Below are positions 400-60,296 of a stretch of 64,000 nucleotides of DNA, in pieces. Made by a program: the position numbers and the translations under genes. The DNA is from Mobula hypostoma (taxonomy: Eukaryota): positions 123,072,001 to 123,136,000 of the forward strand of contig NC_086097.1 in NCBI RefSeq assembly GCF_963921235.1. The letters run 5' to 3'. The notes beneath the pieces were generated by a model. The model ran no database searches. It was not told where the DNA came from and saw only the letters and a list, made by a program, of their open reading frames with translations. Every line of letters starts with the position of its first letter. The first letter of the stretch is position 1.

Positions 400-590
400 T
401 GAAATCCAGAGTAAATACACAATTTACAGGAGGAGCTCTGCAGGTAAGGCAGCCTCTATGGAGAACAACAAAGTGTTAATGTTTCAGGCCAAGACCCTTC
501 ATCAGGACCTCAGCCCAAAATGTCAACTCTTTATTCCTGTCCATTGATGCTGCTTGACCTGTTGGGTTTCATTCGCATTTAGTGTGTGTA
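400..590. mobile_element. Palindromic Penelope-terminus-derived element (decayed hammerhead arms)
   Basis: Left arm ...GTTTCAGGCCAAGACCCTTCATCAGGAC, right arm CAGCCCAAAATGTCAAC...GATGCTGCTTGACCTG...GTGTGTGT; arms are roughly reverse complements. Confidence 0.75.
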
Positions 591-2011: not shown

Positions 2012-2330
2012 AACACACACTAAATGCTGGAAGAACTCAGCAGGTCAGGCAGCATCTATGGAAGGGAATAAACAGTCGATATTTTGGGCCCAGACCCTTC
2101 ATCAGGACTCTTCATGTTTGCCAAACTAATTTTACTAGTCCAACTAAACTAATCCTTTCCATTCTCTGCACATCCATGTGCCTATCCTGTGAGTCCTGAT
2201 GAAGGGTCTCTGCTCAAAATAATGACAGCTTATTCCCCTCCATAGATGCTACCTGACCTGCTGAGTTCATCCAGTATTTTGTGTGTGTGTGTTGCTCAAG
2301 ATTTCCAGCATCTGCAGAATCTCTTGTGTA
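2012..2330. mobile_element. Palindromic Penelope-terminus element with ~80-bp spacer
   Basis: Inverted arms ACACACAC...GACCCTTCATCAGGACTC / GAGTCCTGATGAAGGGTC...GTGTGTGT. Confidence 0.8.
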
Positions 2331-5189: not shown

Positions 5190-5775
5190 TAAACACCAGA
5201 GATTCTATAGTTGCTAGAAACCCAGAATCCCCATTCCCACTCCGACATCCTGATCAATGGCCTCCTCAACTGCCACAAGGCTTCTTTCCGGTTGAGGAGC
5301 AACATCTTGTATTCCAGGTAGCCTTCAACCTGACAGCATCAACATCAACTTCTCTAACTTCCGATAATTTCCCTCCTCCTCCTTCCCTCTTGTTCCCTTC
5401 TTAACTGTCTGTATCTTGTTTTACGGCGGTTGGCATCCAGCTTAATGGTGCATTACCGCCACCCCCTTCTTAACTCTTCTCTTCACCTGCTTATCACCTC
5501 CCTGTGCTGCCCCTCCTCCACCCCTTTCTCCCATGGTGCATTCTCCTCCTATCAGATTCCTTCTTCCTCAGCACTTTAGCTCTTCCACCTATCATCTGCC
5601 AGCTTTTCACTTCGTCTCCCTCCCCCACCCACCTGGCTTCACTTATCACCTTCTAGCTTGTACTTTCCCTGCCCCACCTGCTGAACCAGATTAGTTTCTT
5701 TCCCCTTCCTTTCCAGTCCTGATGGAAGGGTGTGGACAAAAACAACCTTCCATAGATGCAGGCTGAACAGTTGAG
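5190..5775 (+). mobile_element. Penelope-like element 3' region (ORF end, pyrimidine-rich tail, decayed hammerhead)
   Basis: GAGGAGCAACATCTTGTATTCC...CTTCAACCTGACAGCATCAACATCAACTTCTCTAACTTCCG, then CAGTCCTGATG. Confidence 0.75.
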
Positions 5776-5877: not shown

Positions 5878-5917
5878 TCAGTCCTGACGAGGGGTTCTGA
5901 CCCGAAACGTTGACTGA
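5878..5917 (+). ncRNA. Minimal type-I hammerhead ribozyme motif (Penelope terminus), intact core
   Basis: UCAGUC-CUGACGA-G-GGGUU(CU)GACCC-GAAA-CG-UU-GACUGA: 6-bp helix I, CUGANGA/GAAA core, ACGU palindromic helix III. Confidence 0.75.
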
Positions 5918-5984
5918 TCGTTTCTACGGATGCTGCTCGACCTGCTGAGTTCCTCCAGCGTGTTGTGAGCACAGCACAAGATAC

Positions 5985-8030: not shown

Positions 8031-8770
8031 ATAGAGATCCCCTTTTCCCTGATTACTGAAATTGTGGAATCCTCCCCTTAAACCCCCCCTAGCTCCATTT
8101 ATTATTTGATGAACTTTTATTTTCAAATGTCCTTCTGTAACTACTTAGATAAATGCACTCATCTCGAAGATTAGCAGGAGCAGAAGGTATTGTTTAAATA
8201 GCAGATATTGTTGTCTCTGCAGGGTTCCGATCAGCCTTCCAATAAATATACATTTAGTGGCCACTTTATTAGGTACATCTGTACACCTGCACATTAACAC
8301 AAATATCTAATCAGACAATCATGTGGCAGCAACTCAATGCATAAAAGCAAGCAGACATGGTCAAGAAGTTTAGCTGCTGCTCAGACCAAACAGCAGAATG
8401 GGGAAAAATGTGATCTGCGTGACTTTGACTGTAGAATGACTATTAGTGCCAGACAGGAGACTGCTGATCTCCTGGGACTTTCACACACAACACACTCTGC
8501 AGTTTACAGATGATGGTGCGAGAAACAAAAAACCCCCAGTGAGCAGGAATTCTGTGGGCAAAAATGCCTTGTTGATGAGAGACATCAGAGGAGAATGGCC
8601 AGACTGGTTCAAGCTGACAGAATCAGATTCAAAGTCAGGTTTAATATCACTGGCATATGTCATGAAATCTGTTAACTTTACGGCAGCAGTACAATGAAAT
8701 ACATGATAAATAAATATAGAGAAACTGTCACATTAAGTATATATCTATTAAACAGGTAAGTGAAAATAAG

Positions 8771-9332
8771 CAACACACATCAAAGTTGCTGGTGAACGCA
8801 GCAGGCCAAGCAGCATCTATAGGAAGAGGCGCAGTCGACGTTTCAGGCCGAGACCCTTCGTCAGGACTAACTGAAGGAAGAGTGAGTAAGGGATTTGAAA
8901 GCTGGAGGGGGAGGGGGAGATGCAAAATGATAGGAGAAGACAGGAGGGGGAGGGATAGAGCCGAGAGCTGGACAGGTGATAGGCAGAAGGAGATACGAGA
9001 GGATCATGGGACAGGAGGTCCGGGAAGAAAGACAAGGGGGGGGGGGTGACCCAGAGGATGGGCAAGAGGGACAGAGGAACAGAGGGACAGAGGAAGAAAA
9101 AGGAGAGTGAGAGAAAGAATGTGTGCATAAAAAAGAGTAACAGATGGGGTACGAGGGGGAGGTGGGGCCTAGCGGAAGTTAGAGAAGTCAATGTTCATGC
9201 CATCAGGTTGGAGGCTACCCATACGGAATATAAGGTGTTGTTCCTCCAACCTGAGTGTGGCTTCATCTTTACAGTAGAGGAGGCAGTGGATAGACATGTC
9301 AGAATGGGAATGGGATGTGGAATTAAAATTAA
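8771..9332 (-). mobile_element. Young Penelope-like 3' fragment with 13-bp TSD
   Basis: TSD AAGTGAAAATAAG at 8758-8770 and 9333-9345; ORF end, pyrimidine-rich tail (minus strand) and terminal hammerhead motif. Confidence 0.85.
8832..8869 (-). ncRNA. Minimal type-I hammerhead ribozyme motif, intact core with GUC triplet
   Basis: Minus strand UAGUC-CUGACGA-A-GGGUC(UC)GGCCU-GAAA-CG-UC-GACUG. Confidence 0.8.
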
Positions 9333-12037
9333 AAGTGAAAATAAGTAGTGCAAAAACATCAGTAAAACAACTTGTGAGGTGGTGTTTATTCGTTCAATGT
9401 CCATTTAGAAATCGGATGCCAGAAAGGAAGAAGCTGTTCCTGAATCGCTGAGTGTGTGCCTTCAGGCTTCTGTACCTCCTTCCTGATGGTAACAATGAGA
9501 AGGGGGCATGTCCTGGGTGGTGGGGGTCCTTAACGATGCATGCTGCATTCCTAAGGCACCACTCCTTGAAGATGTCTTGGATACTACGGAGACTGGTACC
9601 CATGATGGAGCTGACTAATTTTACAACTTTCAGTAACTTACCCCCTCCCCTCCATACCGGACAGTGATGCAGCCAGTCAGAAGGCTCTCCACAGTACATC
9701 CGTACAGGTTTTAGAGTGTTTTAGTTGACAAACAAAATCTCCTCAAACTCCTAATAAAATACTGTATAGCTGTGTCTTGCCTGTAACTCGAATAACCACA
9801 CATTACAACAGTGGTCTGCAGAAGAGCATCTCTGAATACACAACAGGTTGAATCTTGAAGTGGATGTGCTACAGCAGCAGAAGACCATGAACAGCCAGCC
9901 AATGGCCACTTTATTAGGTACAGGAGATACCTCATACAAGTTGCCACTGTGTGTAAGTATCTAATCTATCATCCAGTTTCTTTGCCCTTGTGTTTTTGGA
10001 CATTCTATCCAACAACTTGTCTTACACATAAGCAGGAGTGGGTCCCATTTTTAGCCGTGGCTTTGTGCTGTGTTGATAGGCCTGGGAGAGACTTGTGTTC
10101 CTGCAATTAATTGTTGTTAGATGGTTGCAAGTGAGAAGGTTACAAATATGGACACTATATAACAACGAATGGGGTCAGATTTAACTTTGGATGATGGAAA
10201 ATGAGCAAAGGTGATACAGGTAGACTTACAGTACTACAATGTTTTTGAACAAGATTCTTATGAAAATGGGTATCTGAATCAGAGAGTATTATTTGAAGTC
10301 ATCAATTCTGCCACTCGGCACTCAAATATTTGTACACAAGCACAAGCCTGGACTTTCCCAGAAAACGGCAGAGCAGCAAATATACTGTAGGTCATTCCCT
10401 GCTACAAACCAGCTCGTAATTCTGACACTCATTGTGATACTTACCTCTTTAATCTCAGTTCCTGATCAATCTCCATGTGTGATATTACTACTTTTGTTAG
10501 TATATTTGTCTTCATAAATATCTCAGTTGATCCCACATTTTAAACAAAACGTTCCTTGGAAGTTATCCTACATGTTTAGCTTCTTAGTTCTAGTTTTAAG
10601 AATATGTTCGCATATCACCTTCCTTGTGATAAAATTTCATATTTGAGTTAATTGTTCATTCTATTCAATATTTTCAGCTTTAGACTGAGATTCAGATTCA
10701 GATTTATTAAGCACATATACATCGAAACATAGAGTGAACTGCGTCATCTGTGTTAACAACCAATACACTCAAGGATGTGCTGGGGGCAGCCCACAAGTGT
10801 TGCCAAATATGCCCACCATGCTCGGCAGAATGAAACAGGATACACCAAGCGACAAAGCAACAATGAAACAAGCCTGTTTCTCCCCACCCCCACCCCCCTA
10901 CCCACGCATACACACAGTCCACTAACCACAGGACAGTTACTATTGAAAACTAAGATTTGGTCCTCTTCAAAATGCTGGCTATTTTGCATGTAGAACAAGT
11001 GCTTCAGCTTTTTTCCTCCCCCCTCAGTGCTGAATCAATATCCTAAAATGTTTAATTTAACACAAGTGCCTGCCTCTTGTTAGCGAGCCAGTTCCCCACA
11101 TGCTCAAGGAGGGTCTCTCCAATACAACAGCTTTAATTTTAGCTGGCAATCATCTTTGAAGGTGATTATGAAATTTGCATTTGAAGTTCACAGTGGCCTA
11201 ATTCTGCTCCTGTGTCTTATGGTGCTCTAACAAGCAAATGACTTTATCAAAGAACGATCAGGTTAATTAGAGGCAGCTTAAGATTCAAGATTGCTTATCG
11301 TCATTCTTCTGTACACGCAGGTAAAGGAGAACAAAATAGTTGTAACTCCAGATCTGATGCAGCATAAAAGTACTCAATAAACATAAAGAACGCAATGAAA
11401 AACACAATCAGATATAAATATAAACGCAATCTTACAAAACACAATGTACTGTTATACACATAGACTGATTATATATCCATCAAGTGCCACAGGGTGATGC
11501 ACATGTAGTGTTAATGTGTGGAGCTGTTGATTAGTCTGATGGCTTGGGGGGAGTAACTGTATTAGAGTCCAGTGTTCCTGCTGTGGATGCTGCATAGCCT
11601 CGTCCCTGATGGGAGCGTGGCAACCTTCACAAATGCACAATGACTCATCCAAACAGCGGTGGTCTTGTATGGATGATGTACTGGGTAGTTAGCAGTTCTT
11701 ATGCTTCATCAAGTAGACCTTTGCTGGATTATGTATTATATGGAAATAAATGATGTGTATGTATATGTGTCCACGGAGAGTGTAACACAGTGGCTGAATA
11801 AACCAAACCCTAGTCTCCTATCAGCTCCCTGAGCAGAAACATCACAACTGGCGTTGAAGGCTGGAGACCAACAAAAAAGAGATAACGGGGCAATAGAAAA
11901 TAAAAGCAAACTCTTTGAATGCATCAGAATGAGGTTTAATATTGCTGCCGTATGTTGTGAAATTTGTTGTTTTGTAGCAGCAGTAAATTGCAGTACATAA
12001 TAGGAACTACTATAAATTACAGTAATATTTATAATAG

Positions 12038-18231: not shown

Positions 18232-19185
18232 AACGTATACAAAATGCTGGAGGAACTCGGCAGGTCAGGCAGTATTTGTAGAAATGAATAAACAGTCAAT
18301 GTTTCAGGCAGAGACTCTTCTTCAGGTATGGAAAGGAAAGGGAAAGATGTGGGGAGAAGGGATGGAAACTAGCCAGAAGGTGATAGGTGAAGACAGCTGG
18401 GTAGGAAAGGTCGAGGACTGGAGAGGAAGGAAATAGGAGAGAAAAGTGGACCATAGGAGAAAGGGAAGGAAGTGGGGGCCCAGGGGGAGGTGATAGGCAT
18501 GTGACAAGAGGTAAGAAGTCAGAGTAGGGAATAGACGAAGAGGGAAGAGGAAGGGATTTTTTTTTAACCGAAAGGAGAAATTGATGTTCATGCCAGCAGG
18601 TTGAAGACTATCCAGATGGAATATAAGGTTTGCTGCTCCACCCTGAGGATAGCCTCATTGTGGCACAAAAGGAAGTCAGGGACCGACATTTCGGAAGGGG
18701 AATGGGAATGGGAATTGGAATTTAAATGTTTGGCTACCAGGAAGTTCGGCTTTTGGTGGATGGATTGGAGGTGCTCAATGAAGTGGTCCCCCAATTTACG
18801 ATGGGTCCAACCAATGTAGAAGCGGCCAGATCGGGAGCTCCGGACACAATAGACGACCCTAGCAGATTCACAAGTGTTGCCCCAGTGTTTGGGGCACTGA
18901 ATGGAGGTGAGGGAGGAGGTGAATGGGCAGGTGTAGCACTTCAGCCACCTGCAGGGATAAGTGCCAGAAGGGAAATTAGTGAGGAGGGACAAATAGACGA
19001 GGGAATCACGGAGGGAGTGATCCCCATGGAAAGCGGAGAGACAGGGAGGTAAAGACATGTTTGAATATGCTTGGTGGTAGGATCCCTTTGGAAATGGTGG
19101 AAGTTGTGAAGTATGATGTGTTGGATGCAGAGGGTCATAGGGTGGTAGGTAAGGACAAGAGGAATTCTATCACTGTTAAGGTGGT
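18232..19185 (-). mobile_element. Penelope-like element 3' part with GIY-YIG endonuclease remnant
   Basis: ORF 18588-19058: TYPC..KCYTCP...VVYCVRSSRSGRFYIGWTHRKLGDHFIEH...VAKHLNS; ends in a decayed hammerhead terminus at ~18293-18326. Confidence 0.85.
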
Positions 19186-23821: not shown

Positions 23822-24208
23822 TCAATTCTTCAGCCACACATTTATCTGCCACCTCATTCTATTCCAATCCACATCGTCGCGTGGCACAGGCAGCAATCCC
23901 CAGATTACTGCCCTTGAGGTCCTGCTTCTCAGCTTCCTTCCTAACTCCCTGCATTCTTTTTTCAGGACCTCCTCCCTTTTTCTTCCTATGTCATTGGTAC
24001 CAATATGTACCACGACTTCTGGCTGCTCACCCTCCCTTTTCAGGATATTGTGGGCACGTCCAGAAACATCTTGGGCCCTGGCACCTGGGAGGCAAACTGC
24101 CACCCAAGCTTCGTCTTTGCATCCACAGAATCGTCTGTCTGTCCCCCTGACTATAGAGTCCCCCATTGCTGCTGCCATCATCCTCAGTTCCCTGCCCTTC
24201 TGAGGCAC
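23822..24208 (-). pseudogene. CR1 ORF1 SGNH/GDSL esterase-like domain remnant
   Basis: GDSIVRG...CLPGA...VVVHIGTNDIG motifs. Confidence 0.9.
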
Positions 24209-25616
24209 AGGGCCAGACTCAGTGCCAGAGGCATGTTCGCTGTTGCTTCCCCCAGGTAGGTCATCCCCCGCCCTGCCCAGCAGTACTCAAAATGGAGTAC
24301 TTATTGTTGAGGGGGACAGCCACAGGGCTGGTCTCCATTTTCTAACGTTCCCCCTTCCCTCTCCTGACAGTCACCCATTCATCTGTCTCCTGTAGCTTGG
24401 GGTTACTATCTCCCTGTACCTCCTGTCTATTACTACTTCACTTTCCAGAACAAACCAAAGATCATTAAACTGCAGCTCCAGTTCCCTAACATGGTCTCTA
24501 AGGAACTGCACCTCGATGCACCTAGCACAGATGTGACTATTGGAGAGGCTGTGAGTCACCCAGAAAGCTCACATCTGACAGCGAGAACAGAACACTGGCT
24601 CTGTAGACATACACCTATTCTCTCTAGAGCTGAATAAGAAATAATGAACTTACCTAGACTCTGCCTGTTCTCACTGAAGCCCTGTTTGAGCAAAAGCCTT
24701 ACTACTCTGCTTCAGACTACTCCGACGACGACCGCTCTGCTAGACGGTACCTCTCTTTTTATAGAGACTGGGTTTCCCATCGAAAATCTTTGTTGGACCT
24801 GCGCAGGAATGCTCCTGTTGCGTCTGCACTGTAGTCCAATCAACAACTCCCGTCGAAAAACTTGCTGCGTTTTCAAGCTCTTTGTTAGACCTGCACAGGA
24901 ATGCTCCTGTTGCATCTGCGCAGTCCTCCAATCAGCGTAACTCCAAATTTAAGCTGATTGGAGGAAAGTATAGTGGAGCTGTCAGAAGTATGTTCTTTAC
25001 ACAGAGTAATGGCGAGAGTGTAGTTTTTCACCGGTCCTATTGTACTTCTTGGTTCTACTGTGAAAATTGAATCTCAGGATAGTATGCAGTGTTATTTACA
25101 CATTTTGATATTACATTTACTTTGAAGCTTGGATTGTGGGAGGAAACTGGAGCACCCAGAGGAAACACACATGGTCACAGGGTGAATATATAGATCCCTC
25201 ACAGGACAGTGGCGGAATTGAATTTAGGATAGTGGCGCTGTAATGGTGTTATACTAACCACTGCACGACAGTGGAGCCCCCATTTGAAGCTGCAGCTGTC
25301 CAGCGGAATATGGAGTAAGTTGCTGAACTTGAACTAGAAGTTAGCATATTATTGAAAACCTTTTGAAATCCTCCATTATCAGTACATTGTAATTATTTGT
25401 TGAGATTTCAAACGGTCAATTCAGGTACTGTAAATATAATCACAGTAATCACACATTCTTTTCATGCATTAGGTATTAGCAAGGATCTTCAAAGTAACAA
25501 ATCTAGACTCTCCAGTAAGAGTTCATTGAAATTTATTCATATATTTTGTTGCCATAGTTTCAAACAAAACAACTTAATAACCCATATATTCTCTCAGTTA
25601 AACAGAAAATAAAATT

Positions 25617-26631: not shown

Positions 26632-26856
26632 AGAAACACTAAGGATTCTGCAGATGCTTGAAATCCAGAGCAATACACACAAAATGCTGGAGGAACCTAG
26701 CAAGTCAGGCAGCATCAATGGACAGGAATAAAAAGTTGATGTTTCAGGCCGAGGCCGAGTTCTGATGAAGGATCTCAGTCCGAAACATTGACTGTTTAGT
26801 CCTTTCCGTAGATGCTGCCTGAACTGCTGAGCTCCTTTGGCATTTGTGTGTGTTGA
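26632..26856. mobile_element. Palindromic Penelope-terminus element with 12-bp TSD
   Basis: TSD ATTGTTTGAATT at 26620-26631 and 26857-26868; inverted arms; + arm has CTGATGA-A-GGATC(TC)AGTCC-GAAA. Confidence 0.85.
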
Positions 26857-27692
26857 ATTGTTTGAATTGTGTGCTGTGATCAACAACACTGCTTTCAAAC
26901 TAACATTACATTCAGCTAAATGTATTAATTAAATAAAACTGTCACTTAATAATTCACTACAAGGTTTACAGAACGATGCAAATCAATGACTTTTCTACAC
27001 ATCTTACGTATTAAAATGCTGCACGTTATAGAAAAGGCTGTATATCTAGCTAGATTTACAGTTGCTATTCTCACATAAATGCCAATACAGCATAGTGGTT
27101 TAAAACCTTATTTCAATCTTCTTTATAAAACTATTAATGGTGATCACACCTGGATAGCTATCAGTTTTAACATGACGACCACATGTAATGTACAGATGAC
27201 AAAGAAGTTCCATTGCGCATTGCCGCATTTTGCAGATGAGCACAATATCTTTCAACAATCAGCTTTGATAAAAGAGTTGCTTTAATTGGCAGAGGTACAT
27301 TGAAACACCAAAATGTACAGTGAAATGCAGGGTTTAAACCAAATCATGTCAATGAGGATTGTGATAGGGGTAGGTAGCAAGTGTCGTCATGCTCCACTGC
27401 CAACCTAACATGCTGACAACTAACTAACCCTAAGTGAATGTGGGAGGAATGCGGAGCACATGGAGGAAACCCGTGTGGACACGGCGAGAACGTACAAAAT
27501 CCTTACAGACTGTGGCGGCCACTAATTGGTGATCACTGTAAAGTGACTGTGCTAACTGCTAGGCTAATACCTTCACATCACTCTGAGAATTCAACACTTC
27601 GAGACATGGGCAACACATACAAAATGCTGGAGAACTCAGCAGGTCAGGCAGCAACTATGGAAAAGAGAATACAGTCAATGTTTCGGGCCAAG

Positions 27693-29560
27693 AACATAAG
27701 GCCATAGGACATAGGAGCAGAATTAGGCCATTCAGCCCATCGCATCTGCTCTGTCATTCCATCATGGCTGATCCTGGCTCCCACTCAACCTCATACACCT
27801 GCCTTCTTACCATAATATTTGATGCCTTGACTGATCAGGAAGCTATCAACTTTCATTTTAAACATAGCCACAGTCTTGGCCTCCACCACAGTCTGTGGCA
27901 GAACACTCCACAGATTCACTACTCTCTGGTTAAAAAAACTTCCTCCTTACCTCTATTCTGAAGGGTCACCCGCACAATTTTGAGTAAGTACCCTCTAGTT
28001 CTGGACACCCCCACTATAGAAGACATTCTCCACATCCACTTTATCTAGTCCTTTCAACATTCGGTAGGTTTCAAAGGGATCCCCCAACATTTTTCTGAAT
28101 TCCAGTGAATATAGGCCCAAAGCTGCCAAACTTTCCTCATATGTTAGCTCTTGCATTCCCGATCATCCCTGTGAACCTCCTCTGGACTCTCTCCAATAAC
28201 AACACAACCTTTCTGAGATAAGGGGCCCAAAACTGTTGACAATATGCCAAGTGGGGACTAACTTCTGTGTCTTATAAAGCCTCAGCATTATCTCCTTATT
28301 TTTATATTCTATTCCCTTTGAAATTAATGCCAACATTGCATTTGCCTTCTTTACCACAGACTCAACCTGAAAATTAACCTCTGGGAGTTCTGCATGAGGA
28401 CTCCTAAGTCCCTCTGCACCTCTGATGTTTGAATTTTCTCTCCATTTAGATAATAGTCTGCACTAGTGTTCCTTTTACCAAAATGCATTATCATGCATTT
28501 CCCAACACTGTATTCCATTTGCCACTTTTTTGCCCATTCTTCCAATTTGTTTAATTTCATTTGAAATTGCATTGCTTCCTCAGCACTACCTACCCCTCCA
28601 CCTATCTTCGTATCATCCGCAAACTTTGCCACAAAGCCATAAATTCCATTATCTAAATCACTGACAAACAATGTGAAAAGTAATGGTCCCAATACTGACC
28701 ACTGAGGAACACCACTAGTCACTGGCAGCCAACCCGAAAAGGTCCCCTTTATTCCCACTCACTGCCTCCTGCCTGTCAGACATTCCTCTGTACAGGCCAG
28801 TATATTCCCTGTAATGCCATGGGAATTTATCTTGTTAAACGCCTCATGTGTGGCATCATATCAACTGCCTTCTGAAAATCCAAGTAAATGACATCTACTC
28901 TCTCTCCTTTGACCACTCTGCTTGTTCCTTACTCAAAGAACTCTTTAACAGATTTGACAGGCAAGACTTCCCTTTACAGAAACTATGCTGACTTTGACTT
29001 ATCTTATCATAAGTCTCCAAGTACCACAAAACCCAATCCTTAATAACAGACCCCAACACTTTCCCAACCACTGAGGTTCGGCTAACTGGCCTATAATTTC
29101 CTTTCTTTTGCCTTCTTCCCTTCTTAAAGAGTAGAGTGACATTTGCAATCTTCCAGTCCTCTGAGACCATGCCAGAATCAAGTGATTCTTGAAAGATCAT
29201 AACCAATGCATTTGTTATCTCTTCAGCAACCTCTTTCAGAACTCTGGGATGTAGTCCATCTGGTCCAGGTGATTTACCACCTTAAGACCTTTCAGTTTGC
29301 CCAGCAATTTTTCCTTTGTAATAGCAATGGCACTCACTCCTGCTCCCTGACACTCACAGACCTCTGGCACACTGCTAGTGCCTTCCACATTGAAAGCTGA
29401 TGCAACGTACTTATTGTTCATCTGCCATTTCTTTGTCTCCCATTCCCCTCTCACCAACATCATTTTCCAGTGGTCCAATATCAACTTTCATCTCCATTTT
29501 ACTCTTTATATAACTGAAAAGACTTTTAGTATCCTGCTTTATATTATTGGCTAGTTTGCC
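27693..29560 (-). mobile_element. 5'-truncated CR1 LINE (RT remnant) nested in a Penelope terminus (27610-27692 and 29561-29910)
   Basis: ORFs 28351-28758 (SGVPQ.SVLGPLLF...KFADDTK) and 28895-29206; the host hammerhead motif GTTTCGGGCCAAGA|CCCTTCATCAGG is split by the insertion. Confidence 0.9.
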
Positions 29561-31328
29561 CTTCATCAGGGCTGGAAAGGATGAGCAGAAGTCAAAGTAG
29601 AAGGTGAGGGGAGGGAAGGAAGAAGTACCTGGCAGGTGATGGGTGAAACTGAGAGGGGGGGGGGTGAAGTGAAGAGCTGGGAAGTTGATTGGTGAAGGAG
29701 ATAAAGGGAAGGGGGAATCTGATATGACAGGACAGAAGATCATGGAGGAAAGGGAAGGGGGAGGAGCACCAGAGGGAGGTGATGGGCAGCTAAAGAAACA
29801 GGTGAGAGAGGGAAACAGGAATGGGGAATGGTGGAAGTACTGGAAGTTCGAGAGATCGATATTCATGTCATCGGGTTGGAGGCTACTCAGAGGGAAATCA
29901 AGGTGCTGCCCCTCTATGAAGGCTCATCATGGCAGAAGACTTACAGACATGAATTTTCCTTGTTCCTCCTATGTGACTCCTGTGTCAGGGATGTGCAAGG
30001 TGAGATGCCATGCTCTGTTTTATGTCCGGCTGTAGTGGGTATGTTTGTTATTAAGTGCTCCTAGTAGGAACTGATCTTTCCAAGCCTGGACCAGGACACC
30101 TATCGTAAGTGAACATTTATCCTTCAGCATTCTGACTGACAGTGGGGGAATCTAGCACCTGAGGGCACAGACTCACAATACAAGGCCATCCCTTCAGAAA
30201 GGAGAAGAGCAGGAAATTTCTTTCACCAGGGGATGGAGAATCTGTGGAATTCATTGCCACAGGAAGCCAAGTCATTGGCTATATTTAAAGTGGAGGCTGA
30301 TAGCTTCTTGATTTGTAAGGGTGTTAAAGATTACAGGAAGAAGGCAGGAGAATAGGGTTGAGAGGGATAATAAATCAGCTATGATCGAATGGCAAAGCAG
30401 GCTCGAGGGGCCAAATCACTTAATTCTGCTCCTATGTCTTAGGGTGTTCTGCACTGCACAACACTGAGCCACCATCTCTATCTGTTCTTGATGATCATTT
30501 TGAGTTCCATTTCCAGATCAGTAACTGACCAGGAAATAAACATGATTGAAAGTGCCATTTCTGAATCTGTATGATCATCACCATCCGTTCCTATTCCCCA
30601 AACATCACCACTGAAACTTTTGGTCCCTCTATCCCCCATTGTCATCACTAAAAAAAGAAGACTCCCCTCCACAGCATGTCACCAGTAACAAAAACATGAG
30701 TTTCAATCCTCTTCCATTGATTTTAAAACTGAAGGCCACCTAGCTCACTATCACTATTGAAAACTATGATCATTTTACTGCAAGTCCCCACCATCACTAT
30801 AGCAACTGCTGACCCCAACGTCTCCTTCGCTACACAAACTGCTGACTCAGCTGAACTTGTGATAATCAATCAGCCTACACCCAGCATGCACCAGGAGTGG
30901 CAGGTAGGACACTGTGGGCATTTGGCTCAACTGAGATTTTCCGCAGAGGTACAGCGATCAATAACTCTGTGTAGGCACTCACCTTAGAATTTAGCCCTAA
31001 CACTAGCATCCAAAAATATAATTTATATAAGCAAAAGGATTTCAGAACTGTCAACTCAGTACTCTGTAAAATGAGAAGGAAATTAAAGCAATCTGTGGGA
31101 GCTGCAGGCTGTTATCCAGCAGCCGTCTTTAGAAAGTAGATGGGTACAGAATTAAAGATAGAATTGAGTTGCTCTGTGCAGGTGAATAATGTATCTCTCA
31201 CATGCAATCCAGCCAAAAGGTACAACAAACTTTGAATAATAACTTAGTTATTGTCGCTGTATTCCAAAGAGAGTTGGTGCTAACAACATTATTGTACACA
31301 CTTTAAAAAGGAAACCTTGCAACAAATA

Positions 31329-31752
31329 CACTCAGTAGCCACTTTATTAGATACCTCCTAAATGGCTACTGAGTGTACGCTTGAGCTTTTCTGTTGCTAT
31401 AGCACATCTCCTTCAAGGTTTGCTATGTTGTGCATTCAGAGATGCTCTTCTGTACACAACTATTGTAACACGTGATAATAGAGGTACTGTCACCTTCCTG
31501 TCAGCTTAAATTGTCTGGCCATTGTCCTACGACCTCTCTCATTAACAAGGCAGACCAAATATCAGAATGGGGAAGAAATGTGATCTCATATGTTTGAGAC
31601 CGTGCAATAATTATTGGTGCTAGACAAGGTGGTTTGGGCATCTCAGAAACTGCTGGTTTCCTGGGATTTTCATGCACAAGTCCCTAGGGTTTACAGAGAA
31701 TGGTGCAAAAAATAAACCAAAAGATCCACTGAGTGGCAGTTCTGTGGCCAAT
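31329..31752. mobile_element. Rearranged Tc1-derivative MITE
   Basis: TA-CACTCAGTAGCCACTTTATTAG terminus; internal pieces in both orientations. Confidence 0.7.
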
Positions 31753-33423
31753 AAGTGTATATGTCCTCCAGTCCTGATGAAGCGTCTCAGCCCAAAACAT
31801 CACCTCTTATTCCCCTCCATAGATGCTGCCTGACCTGCTGAGTACCTCCAGCATTTTTTGCGTGTTATTCTGGATTTCCAGCATTTACAGAATCTCATGT
31901 TTATGGTTCCCCAGTGCTCTCTTTGCTTTGGAGATAAGCTGAACAGCTTTGCAAGTTGGTAAAGTCTCTGTGAAGTTACGTGTTTCTGTGGTCGAATGCA
32001 TTTGAAGTTACGTTGATCAATACCTGTTATTTCTGAAAATTAAGTCCATAAGGACGTTTCCCTTTTGCTCTTTTCCTGTAGTCTGCAGATAGCACAACAG
32101 CAATCAAAAGACTTGTGGCAAACAGCTCCCACAATTAATAAGGTGAATCTACTCCTTACAACCTCCTCCAAAATTCATTCTTGACAGTTACATAATATAT
32201 ATTATACATAATTATGATAAATAGATATTGTTAAACGACTGTAAATATATGTTATACATCAACTATGTTTTAATAAAATCCTCTCTCATCAGATTAATGT
32301 GGCTAAATTAACAATTGGCAATGTAAGGACTTTAAAAACCTGAGCGCTTGTGTTGTAAGTGGCAGTTTGTGACACTAATGGAATCAAAATAAGATATAGC
32401 TAACCCGTTGATAAATCAGCCATCACAGTGTTGAGATAAATTAAGTTTAGGTTTTAAAACGATTGTTAAAGTCTTCTCTCTTTTTGCATTCCCCATTCTG
32501 GCTCCCTTCTGACCCCTTTTCTTCTCATCACCTCCCTCTGGTGCCCCTCTTCATTCCTTTTGTCCCATGGTCTGTTCAAGTTCAAGTTTAATTGTCATTC
32601 AATCATACATGAATACCCACCAGTACAGCCAAATGAAACCACATTACTCCGAGGCCGAGGTGCAAACTACAGTACAGCACAAGGCACATATAAGATCGCA
32701 AGCACATATGTCAGTAAAATAAATTCATACAATCAAAAATATAGTCCAAGACCCTGAGTCCATAAAAGTTGCAGCAGCCCACAGAGAAAAACACAACATG
32801 GCTTGTCTTCTGCCGAGCAAACACTAGGGGGCAGCACCAACTCCAGCCTGGACGCACGCCACATAGCCCTTGGCACGCACCGACTCCAACACCTCTCTCC
32901 TGCACGTCTGTAAACAGGCGACGCCACGTCTTGGGGCCTCGTCCTTGCTATGACCAATGCCATACATCTCCCCTGCTGTCCGCCGATAACAAGAAAGCGA
33001 CTAAGATGATCTCTCATTGTTAAACTGCACATCGTCTTTGCACACTGACTCCTCCAATGCAGGCACCAAGTCCAGCTCCTTCAGCTTCTCTACCAAGACC
33101 TGCAGTACTTTACTTGCAATCTCCTTTTCTTTCAGATTCCTTCTACAGCTCTTTACCTTTTCCACAGATCACCTCCCAGCTTCTCAATTCATTCTCCCTC
33201 CCCCATCCACCTACCTCCTCCCCTACCTGGTTTTACCTATCACTTGTCACTCCTTTGACTCCCTATACCTTTTTATTGTGGCTTATTCCCCCTTCCTTTC
33301 CAGTCCTGATGAAGGGTCTTGGGCCAAAACGTCCACTGTTATTTCTCTCAATACATGCTACCTGACCTGCTGAGTTCCTCCAGTATTTTGTGCGTGTTAC
33401 ATAAGACCTAATCATGTGGGAAT

Positions 33424-33732: not shown

Positions 33733-34844
33733 TAGTCATGTGGGTAATACACAGTTAGCCTGTGAGGTCTGACATTTGGAACAATTGCAAGACAGGAAGT
33801 TACCGCTTTACTTTGAAGTTTTATAGAAAACCAAATACAAATGTAATGCTTCCTAATAAATGTTCACTTGCATCAGAGGTTCAGGGTGATTGCTGTTACA
33901 GCCCTCAGGCTTAGTCAAAACAGCAGTTGCTTCATGGTACGTTGCCTGCAGTTTCACCTTTCGGTATATAATATCCTCACTTTCATATGTCCTTGCACAT
34001 TTCGCTGTAACCCTTCCAAAAGCCCACTGCCAATTTTCAATAGAAATCCCGAATTCACTACCAAAATGTCAAAGAAGTCATTTAATTATCATTGTGTTGT
34101 TTGTCCTTGATAATATTATAATGTTGTTTGAAGCAACAGTGAATCTCTCTCTCTCTCTATTTACTTACTTACTTACTTACTTTCTGTCTGGGTACTCTCC
34201 AACTTGATGGCATGAATATAAATTTCTCCTTCCAGTAAACAAATTTTGCCCCCCCCCCCCATCTTCCTCTGTTTCCCATACTGACCTTTCACTTCTTCTC
34301 ATCTGCCTATCATTTTGACCTGGTCTCCTCCGTCCCTTTCTCCTATTGTCCACACTTCTCTCCAATCAGATTTTTTCTTCTCCAGCGCTGGACCTTTCCC
34401 ACTCTCCTGGCTTCACCTATCACCTTCCAGCTAGCCTTTTTCCCCCTCCTCCCCACCTTTTTATTCTGACTCTTCTCCCTTCCTTCTCTGTCCTGAAGAA
34501 GGGTTTTGGTCCGAAACGTCAAATGTTTACTCTTTTCCATTACCAAACAGCCTGTGTCAGGTGAGATCTGCTTCAGAAAGCAATGGTTGGATAAGAAAGG
34601 GTTGCTTCTTACTGTACAATGAACTCAGTGATCCTTGAAAGGGAAAGAGCAATCTTACGAGGAATGCTGAATTTAATATCTCAAAATGGCTGCATGCTTA
34701 CAGAAATACATCTAAAATAGGTGCTTCCCACCCAAGGTGGCTACATTGCTCTTCCTGAACCAATCCTGCTGATAACTGAACTTCAGACAAATTTATGGTA
34801 TTTGACTGTCCTGTAAAATCACAAAATCTCTCATTCTGCATTCA

Positions 34845-42924: not shown

Positions 42925-43718
42925 GTACACACAAAATATTGGTGGAACTCAGCAGGTCATAAGACCATAAGACAGGAGCAAAATTAGGCCATTCAAACCA
43001 TTGAGTCTGGTCATGGCTGATGTATTATTCCTATCAACCCCATTCTCCTGCTTTCTTCTTGTAAACTTTGACACCCTATATATCAACCTTGGGTTTAAGT
43101 ATACCTAATGAATTGATCTCCACAGCCATCTGTGGCAATGAAATGTATAGATTCACCACCCTCTGGCTAAAAAAATTCCTCCACATCTCTGTTCTAAAGG
43201 GTCATCCTTGTATTCTGAGACTGTGCCCTCCGGTCCTAGACTCCCCCACTTCTGGAAACATCTTCTCCATGTCCACCCTGTCTAGGCCCTTCAATATTTA
43301 GTAGATTTCAATGAGAATCCTCCTCATTCTTCTAAACTCCAGCAAGTACAGGGTCGGAGCTATCAAATGCTCCTCTATGGAAGGAAATAAACAGTTGACA
43401 TTTTGGGTCGACATCCTTCATCAGGGCTATTATTAAAACCGGCAGGAACAGGAAGCTAACTAATTTTGTATTCAGCTGATGGGAATTATTGCAGACTGAG
43501 CTGATATTAACTGACTTATCTCCAAACATTGTAACTTTGCCTCAGCATCACACTACATAGTTCAATCTCTATAAGCTAGATTGTCCAGTTATTAAGGGTC
43601 TCGGCCCAAGATGCCGAGTGTTTATTTCCCTCCGTAGATGCTGTCTGACCTGCTGAATTCCTCCAGTGTCTTATGTATGTTGCATTGGATTTCCAGCATC
43701 TGCAGAATCCCGCGTTTG
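42925..43718. mobile_element. Palindromic Penelope-terminus element with TSD, nested CR1 (42958-43372) and captured inverted flank (43435-43593)
   Basis: TSD TAATATGTACA(C/A)ATG at 42910-42924 and 43719-43733. Confidence 0.8.
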
Positions 43719-45373: not shown

Positions 45374-46336
45374 AGGCCAGGCAATGGAAATGAATAAACA
45401 GTCGACACTTTGAGCCGAGAATCTTCACCATGTTCTCAATGTTATTTATTTCTTCTTTTAAATTATTTGCACAATTTATCTTCTTTTGTACAGTGGTTGT
45501 TAGTCAGTCTTTGTTATGTATAGATCTTCATAAATTCAATTGTCTTTCTTTATTTTCCTCTAAATACCTGCAAAAAATGATTCTCAATGTAGTATATTGT
45601 GACATAGGTACTTTGATAAGAAATTTACTTTGAACTTTCAGTCATTGTGTTTCTCAATAATAAATTATTGACAATCAGTTGCAAAGTAGAATGAGTATGT
45701 TGCTATTATTAATCTAATTTTACTACAAGTCGATTGCTCTACTTATACATGTTAACACCTTTCATAAAACCGACTATTGTCAAGAAATTGTTATGATGAA
45801 GAACCTTGGGTCGGGAATGTTACCTGCTTGCCTTTCCACGGATGCACCTTGACCTTCTGAGTGCTTCCTCATTTTCCATTTTTAATTGTGATTTTCAGTA
45901 TCTACGCTCTTTTTAATTTTCTCCTGACTGACAGGCACTTCAATTTCTGCTTATAAAAAGTAAAATGTATAGAAGTTGTGAAGTAATCGTAAGGATTTTA
46001 ATCTCAGCTAAAAATATGGATGATGGTTATAAACTCTGGCAGGTGAGATCATCAGAGCCCCTCACTGTGATTATTCCTCTTTAATCACTCACAGCTGTCA
46101 GTTAAATAATTTCATGAAGTAAAATATTTACTCTGTTTAACATATCTTTGCTCCCTGAAGAAATGCATATCATCATAGAGTCAGCATCCTTATAGCAGCA
46201 TCATCCTTGAGGGACGGATGGTGATGAGTTGGGTGCCAGACTGATCATTCCCAACGTACCATGAGAAACAGGAGTGAGCCAGCAGACAGACTACACCTGC
46301 CTTGTGTAGAAGACTTCTTTATGCTGAAGAGTTTAT

Positions 46337-48182: not shown

Positions 48183-49365
48183 ACACACACAAAAAGCTAG
48201 AGGAACTCAGCAGGTCAGGCAGTATATATGGAGGGAAATAAACAGATGACTTTTTGGGCCAAGACTCCTCATCAGGACTGGAAAAGAAGGCGGGGGGGGA
48301 TAAACTGGAGTGAGAAGGTAGGGGAAGGGGAAGGAGTACAAGCTGGCCAGTGGATAGGTAAAGCCGAGTGGGTGGAGGAGGGAGGATGAAGTGAGAAGCT
48401 GGGAGATGATACTGCAGGTGAAAGAGGTAAAGTGCTGAAAAAGAAGGGATCTGATAGGAGTGTGGACCATGGGAGAAAGAGAAGGCAGAGGGAGGTGATG
48501 AGCAGGTGAGGAAAAGAAAAGGAGTAAGAGGAGAGCCAGAGTTGGTAATAGAAAAAAAGAGGAGGAGGAAAGAGGATAAATTACCAAAAACTAGAGGGAG
48601 GAGAAGATGGCAGCGCGATGCAGCTCGCAGCGGCCTCTCCAGTGAATGATATCTGTTATCTGTCAAGTAGGGTGCTGTACACAATCCTGACTTGATGGAG
48701 ACAGACTTGAGGGCACGGAGGAACATCTGGTGAAACATCTGAAATGCCTGTTTCGCCGCCGCTGCTACTGTGTGATCCAGAATATCCGGAGGGGAAGGCC
48801 CCGAGTCCTCGGCTTTGCTTGTTGCTCGGCAGCCGGGGCAGGGTCAAAGCGCTCGGCAGAGATGGCGCTCAGTGTTTAGTGTCGGAGGCTCGAAGTTTTC
48901 AGACGGACTCGGAGTCAGCTGCGGTCAGGTGCTTCCAATGCATCGGCAAGTTTGCGGCGATTCCGTCTGCGTGAGATGACGGGGCTATCGGGATTTGAGA
49001 CTTTTTTTACCGTGCCCGTGGTCTGCTCGTTATCAGATTACGGTATTGCTTTGCACTGTTGTAACTATATGTTATAATTATGTGGTTTTGTCAGTTTTTA
49101 GTCTTGGTTTGTTCTGTGTTTCTGTGATATCTTTCTGGAGGAACATTGTATCATTTTTTAATGTATGCATTTCTAAATGACAATAAATGAGGACTGAGTG
49201 TCCTCATAATCTAAAATCTAAATCTAATCTAAAAAATCAATGCTTATGCCGACCAGTTAGGGACTATACAGATGGAATATAAGGTGCTGCTACTCCAACC
49301 TGAGAGTGGCAGGAGAGGAGGCCATACATCAACATGTCAGAATGGGAATTAAAATGATTGGCCAA
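48183..49365 (-). mobile_element. Penelope-like 3' fragment split by a non-autonomous insert
   Basis: Terminus ACACACAC...CTCATCAGGACTG, purine-rich tail, resumes at ~49236. Confidence 0.8.
48597..49235 (+). mobile_element. GC-rich non-autonomous LINE-derived element with YY1-like 5' motif and (AATCT)n tail
   Basis: Begins GGAGGAGAAGATGGCAGCG; ends AATGACAATAAA...AATCTAAAATCTAAATCTAATCT; no tRNA boxes and no RT. Confidence 0.7.
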
Positions 49366-58177: not shown

Positions 58178-59770
58178 TTCTCCATCATTAGGATGGAAGT
58201 GAGGATGTTTGCTGATAACTTTGTAATGCCAGTTCCATTCCCAATTACTTAGGCCACAAGGTGGATGGACAATAGCCCTCAAGAGGCTGATGAGTGCCAT
58301 GTAATATAAATGCCAAAGGAGTGCCAGTCAAAGTCATTTCCAATCATCTTCCTATGACGATCAATGAGAAATATCTCACCATTGACATGCTGGGCATCAT
58401 CATAAGACATATGAGCAGAATTATGCCATTCAGCACATCTAGTCTGCTTCACCATTCCATCATGGCTAATTTGCCCAATATGCCCAATGGCTTGGTCTTT
58501 GGCAATTCCAGATCTACCACCCTCTGACTCCAGCCATATATCACCAGCCAAAACAACAGTATAGCTTCAAGATCTGAGACCACATATTCTGTGGCAAGTG
58601 ACATACAAAACCTTTCAACTACCCACAAGGCACTGTGGTGTGATGGAATGCTTTTGACTTGTCTGGAAAAGCAGAGATTTCCAAAAACCGCGACAGGTCT
58701 CAGTATCACCCAGGGCAGTACAGCCACCTTGACTGGACCTCATTTGTCATCCTGAACAATCATGTCTTCTTCCATTCACAAATTCACTGCAGCACTTCGA
58801 CACCGATCCTTTCATCGCACCTCATCCCATGAACCGCCAACGACTAAACACTTACATAGGCACCCAACATCAGCCATCTCCTCCCAAGTTACATATCACT
58901 TTGTTAAAATACGCTGCTATCCATTTGGTGTTGCTGACCTACAGCACTGTGGGAATGCATTTATTGCAAGGACTATTGCAGCCAGCAATACACCTTTTCA
59001 AGCAATATGATCACCTTCCAATGACATCCACAACCCATTAGAGTACTTAAATACCTTTGAATGACAGGCTACAGAAGAAAAACTCAAAAAAAAAACATGT
59101 AAGAGAAATAAACCAGAATAGAGAATAGATTCTGATCAGTCATGTCAGATGATAAACATAAGACTATAAGGCATTGGAAAAGGATTAGGCCATTCGGCCC
59201 ATCAAGTATAATACGACATATAAGCATGCCTTATTTATTATCCCTCTCAATTCCCTTCTCCCTGTAACCTGTGCCATCCTTACAAGAACGTACAAACTTC
59301 TGCTTTAAATACACCCAATGACTCGGCCTCAGCTATCTATGGCAATGAATTCCACAGATTCACCGCTGTCTGGCAGAACAAATTCCTTCTTATCTCAATT
59401 CTAAAGGGAATTCTTTGTTTTCTGAGGCTATGTCCTCTGGTACTAGACTGTCCCACTACTGGAAACATCTCCACAAATATCTAGCTCACAAGTGGGTTAA
59501 AGGTATGCCCCAGATAGATACTGTATATTAATTATATCTGCAGGTAGACATGCAAATGTAGATTTAAAATTAGATGTTAATTTTTAATGTTAAATCTTTA
59601 TTTAAATATTCAAAATATTTAAAGCATAAAATATTAATTGCTTTTGGTGTAGCTACAGTTAGAAAAAAAACTTACTTTTAAACAGTAACATCAAATTAGA
59701 AGCTGGGTTTGTATCAACACTGACGTTTGCTGCATCTGTTCCGCCACGCACACAAAAAAACTTGCTTGTA

Positions 59771-60296
59771 CACTCAGTAGCCATTTCTTCTACCTAATAA
59801 AGTGGCCACTGAGTTTATATGTGTGGTCTTCTGCTTCTGTAGCCCATCTACTTCAAGGTTCAATGAGTTGTGTATTCAAAGATGCTCTCCTGCACATCAC
59901 TAATGCGTGGTTATTTGAGTTACTGTTGGCTTCCTGTCAGCTTGAACCAATCTGACCTCTCTCATTAACAAAGTATTTTTGCCCACAGAACTGCTGCTTT
60001 ATTTGTGCTTTTCGCACCATTCTCTGTAAACACTAGAGACCGCTGTGTGTGAAAATCCTCGGAGATCAACAGTTTCTGAGATATTCAAACAACCCCATCT
60101 GGTACCAACAATCACTCCGTGGTCAAAGTCTCTTAGATCACATTTCTTCCACATTCTGATGTTTGGTCTGAACAATAACTGACTATGTCTGCATGTTTTT
60201 ATATATTGAGTTGCGGCCATACGATTGGCTGATTAGATATCTGCATTAACGAGCAGGTCAGGTGTACAGGTGTACCTAATAAAGTGCCACTGACTG
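59771..60296 (-). mobile_element. Tc1-derivative MITE flanked by TA
   Basis: TA-CACTCAGTAGCCA ... CCTAATAAAGTGCCACTGACTG-TA; ORF 59999-60220 transposase N-terminal remnant. Confidence 0.85.

Follow-up and report, generated by a model that had tools for sequence, protein, structure and literature searches.

A minimal hammerhead motif at the end of a truncated Penelope-like insert and its dispersed, decaying family in Mobula hypostoma

The window analysed here, a 64-kb stretch of the Mobula hypostoma genome, contains a short minus-strand Penelope-like insert composed of the end of the element's open reading frame, a pyrimidine-rich 3' UTR, a hammerhead motif, and a segment lying 3' of it (Table 1). 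The insert had been predicted to be young and flanked by a target-site duplication, and a perfect 13-bp duplication was indeed found around 8771-9332. When rejoined, the two flanks gave one older repeat, with 20 matches spanning its junction. The end of the insert past the hammerhead likely corresponds to a reverse-transcription start.

Table 1. Positions, strands, and basis of the features identified in the window.
Feature	Position	Strand	Basis or remark
Target-site duplication, left copy	8758..8770	.	perfect 13 bp
Minimal type-I hammerhead motif	8832..8869	minus	strand read, descriptor, predicted fold
Helix I, 5' strand	8869-8865	minus	
Core CUGACGA	8864-8858	minus	
Extra A	8857	minus	
Helix II	8856-8845	minus	
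GAAA	8844-8841	minus	
CGUC	8840-8837	minus	
Helix I, 3' strand	8836-8832	minus	
Predicted cut, C17 (8837) / G1.1 (8836)	8836..8837	minus	presumed from hammerhead numbering
Whole 5'-truncated Penelope-like insert, 562 bp	8771..9332	minus	96% identical to full-length copy L061
Final 53 codons plus stop of element ORF, GIY-YIG endonuclease end	9168..9329	minus	
Pyrimidine-rich 3' UTR (pseudo-LTR body)	8870..9167	minus	last 12 nt predicted to pair with core in young copies
Sequence 3' of ribozyme	8771..8831	minus	insert end ~66 nt past cut, nearer of two preferred ends; PMC11167929
Target-site duplication, right copy	9333..9345	.	perfect 13 bp
Second descriptor-intact copy, sister family	5879..5916	plus	helix II GGGU/ACCC, GUU triplet
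Decayed head-to-head pair	436..564	.	profile
Divergent decayed copies at 2109-2036 (minus) and 2192-2265 (plus)	2036..2265	.	profile
Heavily decayed copy with internal loss	5714..5775	plus	by eye
Decayed copy	18256..18330	minus	38-mer scan, profile
Decayed head-to-head pair, joint at ribozyme 5' edge	26699..26831	.	profile
Single copy interrupted within helix II by an insertion carrying reverse-transcriptase sequence (28351-28758)	27635..29575	minus	
Decayed copy	31769..31842	plus	profile
Decayed copy	33301..33374	plus	profile
Decayed copy	34488..34540	plus	profile
Two decayed divergent copies	43374..43656	.	profile
Decayed copy	45374..45436	minus	38-mer scan, profile
Decayed copy	48206..48280	minus	profile

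Read on the minus strand, the motif shows helix I, the full core, ACGU, and the GUC triplet as originally described. All core positions (C3 U4 G5 A6 N7 G8 A9, G12 A13 A14, the A15.1-U16.1 pair, and H17) are present, together with the extra nucleotide before 10.1, helices I and II, and a palindromic helix III; helix I comprises 5 bp, and the palindrome ACGU replaces helix III. The 5-bp helix II that had been proposed would require a 2-nt loop, and the predicted fold gives instead 4 bp, including two G-U pairs, with a CUCG loop. Pair 10.1-11.1 is G-U rather than the usual G-C, as it is in 13 of 19 young copies drawn at random; older subfamilies carry G-C at this place. A scan with the 38-mer located 14 places in the window at no more than 14 mismatches, compared with none in 30 shuffles. 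The bare CUGANGA..GAAA pattern showed no excess over chance in the window (10 occurrences versus 6.6 expected), and an Rfam search of the window did not report the hammerhead family at E ≤ 10. The core, the helices, and the element context support the identification as a minimal type-I hammerhead at a Penelope terminus; judged by sequence, 8832..8869 is a real minimal hammerhead motif ending a truncated Penelope-like element, of a kind already published.

A profile search of the window recovered 20 copies, and none in the reversed sequence. The more than a dozen intact or decayed copies listed in the original prediction are all real (12 coordinates were recovered by the 38-mer scan or the profile, that at 5714 was confirmed by eye, and 27672/29561 are halves of one copy), but only two of the 20 (8864 and 5884) pass the full descriptor and are intact. 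The second of these belongs to a sister family (5879-5949), which has its own downstream sequence and is ~10% diverged; the four copies sampled all keep C11.1-G12 and C7, and the family may be a second active lineage. Older and more distant relatives of the motif with a U-rich helix I, located at 1680-1743 and 45794-45861 of the window and at L063:7805 on the minus strand, are probably a separate ancient Penelope family. Regarding coding potential, 22 of the 23 long frames scanned in the window had retroelement-type matches only, or none. A minus-strand frame at 23822-24286 gave a GDSL esterase-like match (E 3.6e-7), and the other long frames are reverse-transcriptase fragments; GDSL esterase-like domains occur in ORF1 of some LINEs. 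Additionally, a palindromic repeat of ~56 bp was found at 31324-31380 and 59766-59820, with a related half at ~8254-8285 and 9899-9950. Its appearance is that of a small DNA transposon's terminal inverted repeats joined together, and its match to Rfam mir-9256 is weak (E 0.011, far under the gathering score).

The full-length copy L061 bears a 1043-aa frame with a hammerhead at either end, and the element measures 3513 bp from cut to cut. Its single ORF (L061, L062) encodes a reverse transcriptase, a zinc-finger linker, and, at the C-terminus, a GIY-YIG domain; the RVT_1 and GIY-YIG matches are both under the Pfam cut-off, and a solved-structure search with the ORF returned no match. The linker C-x4-C-x2-C and the C,C,H,H of the endonuclease were read in the translations and agree with the CX2-5CxxC and CCHH pattern, a trait common to Neptune and Nematis. 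Pseudo-LTRs formed by partial tandems, inverted truncated partners, and an optional tail of 30-40 bp were all seen. Assigned to its clade by these motifs, the element is a Neptune-type Penelope-like retrotransposon. It shares with the Neptune clade (Craig et al. 2021, PMC8557442) the reverse transcriptase, the linker, the C-terminal GIY-YIG with CCHH, the partial tandems, the adjacent inverted truncated copies, and the 30-40 bp tail. It differs in the clear 9-14 bp target duplications of many copies and in a copy number far above the 37,000 of the richest Naiad genome in that report. The ribozyme and both preferred 3' ends precede the ATG, which lies ~138 nt past the cut. An exact 26-mer around the start codon occurs at 625 genome places, and the ORF whose last 53 codons the insert carries has 151,008 first-look candidates. 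Two ORF starts situated 3516 bp apart on one strand (G000:C2:157232327 and 157235843) constitute a full tandem, a candidate donor arrangement. Many young inserts, such as L001, L002, L014, L024, and L295/L337, are composed of two short head-to-head arms, each with a terminal tail, which is consistent with priming of both DNA strands. Contigs from four sequencing runs, which are blind to starts, ends, strand, and level, covered all 30 bins of the window insert and lacked a clean splice joint on the strand of the element.

A genome-wide motif search, proposed along with the original prediction, identified 66,493 structure-compatible copies in the 3.48-Gb genome with a pattern keeping the core and the helices; an exact 31-mer gave 39,897 copies and the 20-mer just downstream of the motif 99,838, each with a reversed control of 0. 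The profile, run over 106 evenly spaced 10-kb stretches, yielded 213 matches, corresponding to ~700,000 fragments (bootstrap 574,000-823,000), a rough total given that random stretches under-count young copies (12 pattern matches in 1.06 Mb, or 39,000, versus 66,493). With the window included, 114 of 233 profile matches cover the ribozyme. The predicted density of about one copy per 5 kb thus holds for family fragments; intact motifs occur at ~1 per 52 kb (19 per Mb), about one fragment in ten is intact, and intact copies are mostly single. In number the family is no record, since the axolotl has 126,247 type-I hammerheads in a 28-Gb genome (PMC7229834); its density is higher than in the axolotl.

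When compared with the minimal hammerheads of metazoan Penelope-like pseudo-LTRs (Cervera & de la Pena 2014, PMC4209133), which were reported for the fish elements Xena, Poseidon, and Neptune, the family shows the same type-I layout, core, extra nucleotide, palindromic 15.2-16.2, and short helix I, as well as two copies ~3.5 kb apart in full elements, with most copies single and truncated. In contrast to that set, the 66,493 intact copies of one family exceed a maximum of ~9,000 (X. tropicalis), variety between copies is low, G10.1-U11.1 appears in the youngest subfamily, and there is an A6C subfamily, a variant that the available text of that report does not mention. Animal non-LTR retrozymes (PMC7229834; 10.64898/2026.07.22.740005) likewise show very high numbers of type-I hammerheads and are derived from or related to Penelope termini. 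These are short tandem repeats expressed as circles, whereas the present copies represent truncated, dispersed ends of an autonomous element. A retrozyme identity (tandem units of 150-450 bp without an ORF) was rejected for the window copy, which is single and carries an ORF end. In the literature, hammerhead counts in cartilaginous fishes were not found beyond one species in a bioRxiv survey, as far as the available text of that survey goes (10.64898/2026.07.22.740005); high counts or A6C may be present in Lunse et al. 2016.

Once inserted, the motif is subject to neutral decay. Non-CpG mismatches in 94 old copies amount to 97/939 in the core (10.3%) and 173/1744 in the tail (9.9%; p=0.74). 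Of 95 older copies, 41 have A in place of the catalytic G12, and the CG of helix III reads CA in 31, TG in 30, and is intact in 22. Helix II variants had been taken as evidence of pairing; they are mostly CpG decay, and among 95 old copies the first pair of helix I showed no covariation (p=0.47). Between subfamilies, the helices show pair-keeping single changes only. The absence of excess core conservation over the flanks had been named, together with a lack of cleavage, as grounds for abandoning the ribozyme: such an excess is lacking among copies, as the mismatch rates indicate, but exists between subfamilies (p=0.0035). It holds only against the upstream and +4..+20 flanks, because the segment +20..+66 (31/46 invariant) is as constant as the motif (26/36). 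The oldest and youngest subfamilies are identical at 34/36 motif positions, 13/40 upstream, and 45/64 downstream.

In order, the subfamilies show divergences of 15.5%, 12.5%, 11.6%, 5.1%, and 3.0%. Apart from A6C and the G-U pair, the differences between them lie at the free position 7, in the loop, or in the helices, where pairing is kept. A6C is a trait of the 11.6% subfamily, found in 16 of 95 older copies and linked to other diagnostic letters (A6G was found in 0 copies and A6T in 1); its exact 15-mer has 5,988 genome matches, compared with 2 for the control. A6C copies and the young subfamilies group together (97/86), and A6C is not one clade. In published work, A6C is a natural variant with cleavage strongly lowered in Mg2+ but not in Mn2+ (PMC7151607, PMC3088659). 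An element with an A6C core spread widely, in line with the dispensability of cleavage for insertion in vitro. Despite the rapid decay of CpGs in copies, donors retain the CpG-rich palindrome.

Regarding the ability of single copies to cut, the 38-mer monomer is predicted, from folding energies that omit tertiary core contacts, to pair its own core shut. A predicted energy of -11.5 kcal/mol was obtained for the active double hammerhead; a pair of closed monomers reaches -22.0 and a misfolded dimer -30.3. For the window copy, the predicted probability that helices I and II form is ~0.6 for an RNA starting at helix I, compared with ~0.001-0.002 when the native upstream sequence is included. Young copies are predicted to pair their core with the 12 nt preceding the motif, while older subfamilies lack this upstream effect; the median open-core probability is 2.6e-4 in 60 random flanks versus 1.7e-6 in the native context. 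Single minimal hammerheads were reported not to cleave in vitro, and dimers to cleave little (PMC4209133). The hammerhead of an anole element needs protein in order to cut; insertion in vitro does not depend on this hammerhead, and core mutants still insert there (PMC11167929). Scattered single copies, that of the window included, are likely inert according to these folding models. Three hammerhead copies spaced 145 bp on one strand at G000:C2:12242896-12243220 form a retrozyme-like mini tandem, which could form a cis dimer.

The ends of the copies were studied in 103 young copies sampled by the downstream 20-mer, with positions counted from the cut. At the 3' side, 55 copies end at +50..+79 (near +66), 47 at +95..+117 (near +102), and one beyond; 81 span the whole core. 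Since inserts end ~66 or ~102 nt past the cut, most of them include the ribozyme, which would account for the motif being so common. The anole element Poseidon PAc (Frangieh et al. 2024, PMC11167929) has two internal reverse-transcription start sites and a "tail", and it resembles the present element in its two 3' ends ~36 nt apart downstream of the hammerhead, in the uncut ribozyme of its inserts, and in its AT-rich targets. In contrast to PAc, in which the ribozyme and the ends lie inside the ORF, both precede the ATG here, the linker is Neptune-type, and 5' ends pile up at the ribozyme edge, a feature that the available text of that report does not describe for PAc.

This pile-up was seen in the same sample, in which 15 of 103 copies begin at -37..-28 and one at +1, and in genome-wide 5'-breakpoint patterns, which required four non-element letters before the site and for which copy numbers were estimated from the 103-copy sample. 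The patterns gave 713 matches at -32 (8.7%), 485 at -30 (4.1%), 157 at -34 (1.2%), 132 at -20 (0.9%), 378 at the cut (1.5%), and 86 at +12 (0.3%). Direct joins to the target flank account for 10/30 junctions at -32, 12/20 at -30, and 4-6/30 at the cut, many with 9-14 bp duplications; as rates, these joins reach 2.9% at -32 and 2.5% at -30, ~10x commoner than at the cut (0.3%). Among the 30 junctions read at the cut, 17-18 are inverted arms, often held together by 3-4 letters repeated in helix I, and ~6 are small internal changes; junctions were sorted in this way at -32, -30, and the cut. The small excess at the cut probably consists largely of such inverted arms, and it is no proof of cleavage. 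In L293, L307, and L310, exactly the C at the cut site is missing, as in ~7 of the first 100 cut-breakpoint matches, which could be background deletion or re-joining after cleavage. A breakpoint peak at -36..-28 (28 in 9 nt) also exists among 172 old copies, but poor upstream conservation can mimic it. Of the 42 ORF-start copies, the upstream repeat exceeds 325 nt in 11, and the 5' end of 7 falls at -41..-26, which is compatible with long tandem as well as short-start templates. In some young copies (L012, L013, and L015), a perfect branch-point-like heptamer and a pyrimidine tract lie just before the AG at helix I.

The explanation that we consider highly probable is that the hammerhead works only in the donor RNA, assisted by protein or by a second copy, and that the dispersed single copies are inert by-products that decay. 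Reverse transcription would start at the two 3' ends, copying the ribozyme first, and the template RNA would still be uncut at that stage, so that inserts hold an uncut ribozyme; judging from these ends and from the anole element (PMC11167929), this order of events would explain the copy number. The 5' end of many donor RNAs would lie close to the first base of helix I, where short copies would then stop. Selection would keep the motif only in donor lineages and, because the A6C subfamily spread, not strictly even there. Against this explanation stand the restriction of the upstream misfold to young subfamilies and the cut breakpoint, at 1.5% versus 0.3% and 0.9% at the controls.

That the pile-up at -32/-30 marks the RNA start is slightly short of an even bet. 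A template 5' end would be expected to leave the sharp fall seen between -32 and -34, and the A at -32 stands within YYANWYY, an initiator-like motif, in all six subfamily consensuses. A rival that we regard as rather unlikely explains the same positions as a splice acceptor or roadblock, where splicing factors or helix I microhomology stop or divert the enzyme. It draws on the pyrimidine tract ending in AG (-31) directly before helix I in every subfamily, on the D. virilis intron that ends at helix I (PMC4209133), and on the 19 of 30 junctions at -32 that are inverted arms, several joined via self-complementary helix I letters. However, no recurrent upstream exon or spliced first exon was found in 70 junctions at -30, -32, and -34, and the direct flank joins cannot be caused by helix I microhomology.

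A start at helix I would also permit a more elaborate scheme, in which the RNA starts at the 5' helix I and is cut at the 3' ribozyme, so that its ends share the 32-nt ribozyme sequence, and cDNA primed 66/102 nt in runs off at the ribozyme's 5' edge, jumps by way of this shared sequence to the cut end, and continues into the ORF. The pile-up, the tenfold preponderance of direct flank joins over the cut, and the initiator-like A favour it, as does the internal promoter of the Penelope pseudo-LTR (PMC2377424); it would also account for uncut ribozymes in inserts despite ribozyme conservation. Nevertheless, we consider this strand jump improbable: read-through RNA from tandem donors gives the same inserts, as the 11 ORF-start copies with long upstream repeat illustrate, the start in D. 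virilis lies 120 nt upstream of the intron end meeting helix I (PMC2377424, PMC4209133), and the A6C subfamily spread with a weakened core. If it were true, a non-LTR element would perform a retrovirus-like strand transfer with the ribozyme as its terminal redundancy, the short inserts, in their tens of thousands, would be relics of jumps that failed, and the spread of A6C would testify to a lineage in which cutting had been tuned down. The transfer would then answer both the purpose of the Penelope hammerhead and the regeneration of pseudo-LTRs.

Less probable still is that the motif has ceased to be a ribozyme in this lineage and is kept for a non-cutting role, for instance as promoter sequence or as a fold that binds protein. 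A6C as a subfamily trait, G10.1-U11.1 in the youngest subfamily, and the insertion of anole core mutants in vitro (PMC11167929) would suit such a role, but the other subfamily changes fall on position 7, the loop, and pair-keeping helix sites, the CpG-rich palindrome persists in donors despite its fast decay in copies, and the A6C variant still cuts, best in Mn2+ (PMC7151607). Finally, the original prediction that intact dispersed copies cut host introns or read-through RNA, alone or in trans via ACGU, appears very improbable: the number of structure-compatible copies, the loss of inhibitory upstream sequence in helix I-truncated copies (2.6e-4 versus 1.7e-6), and the depletion of retrozymes from Xenopus introns (10.64898/2026.07.22.740005) are outweighed by the scarcity of intact and mostly single copies, the misfolding predicted for the window copy in its own context, a predicted active double hammerhead far less stable than closed monomers or the misfolded dimer, head-to-head pairs whose members, being on opposite strands, are unable to form it in cis, cores that are lost at a rate no different from that of the flanks, and published monomers that did not cut (PMC4209133).

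The hammerhead in Penelope is thus of a known kind, and a vast host-cutting pool is unsupported; the value of the family is as a test bed. The role of the ribozymes of Penelope-like elements has been called unclear (PMC8557442). The ~100,000 young copies provide single-base statistics on the starts and stops of Penelope reverse transcription, the 5'-end pile-up yields a precise predicted position for the RNA start, and the successive subfamilies, from A6 to A6C and then to G-U at 10.1-11.1, supply natural variants for cleavage assays.
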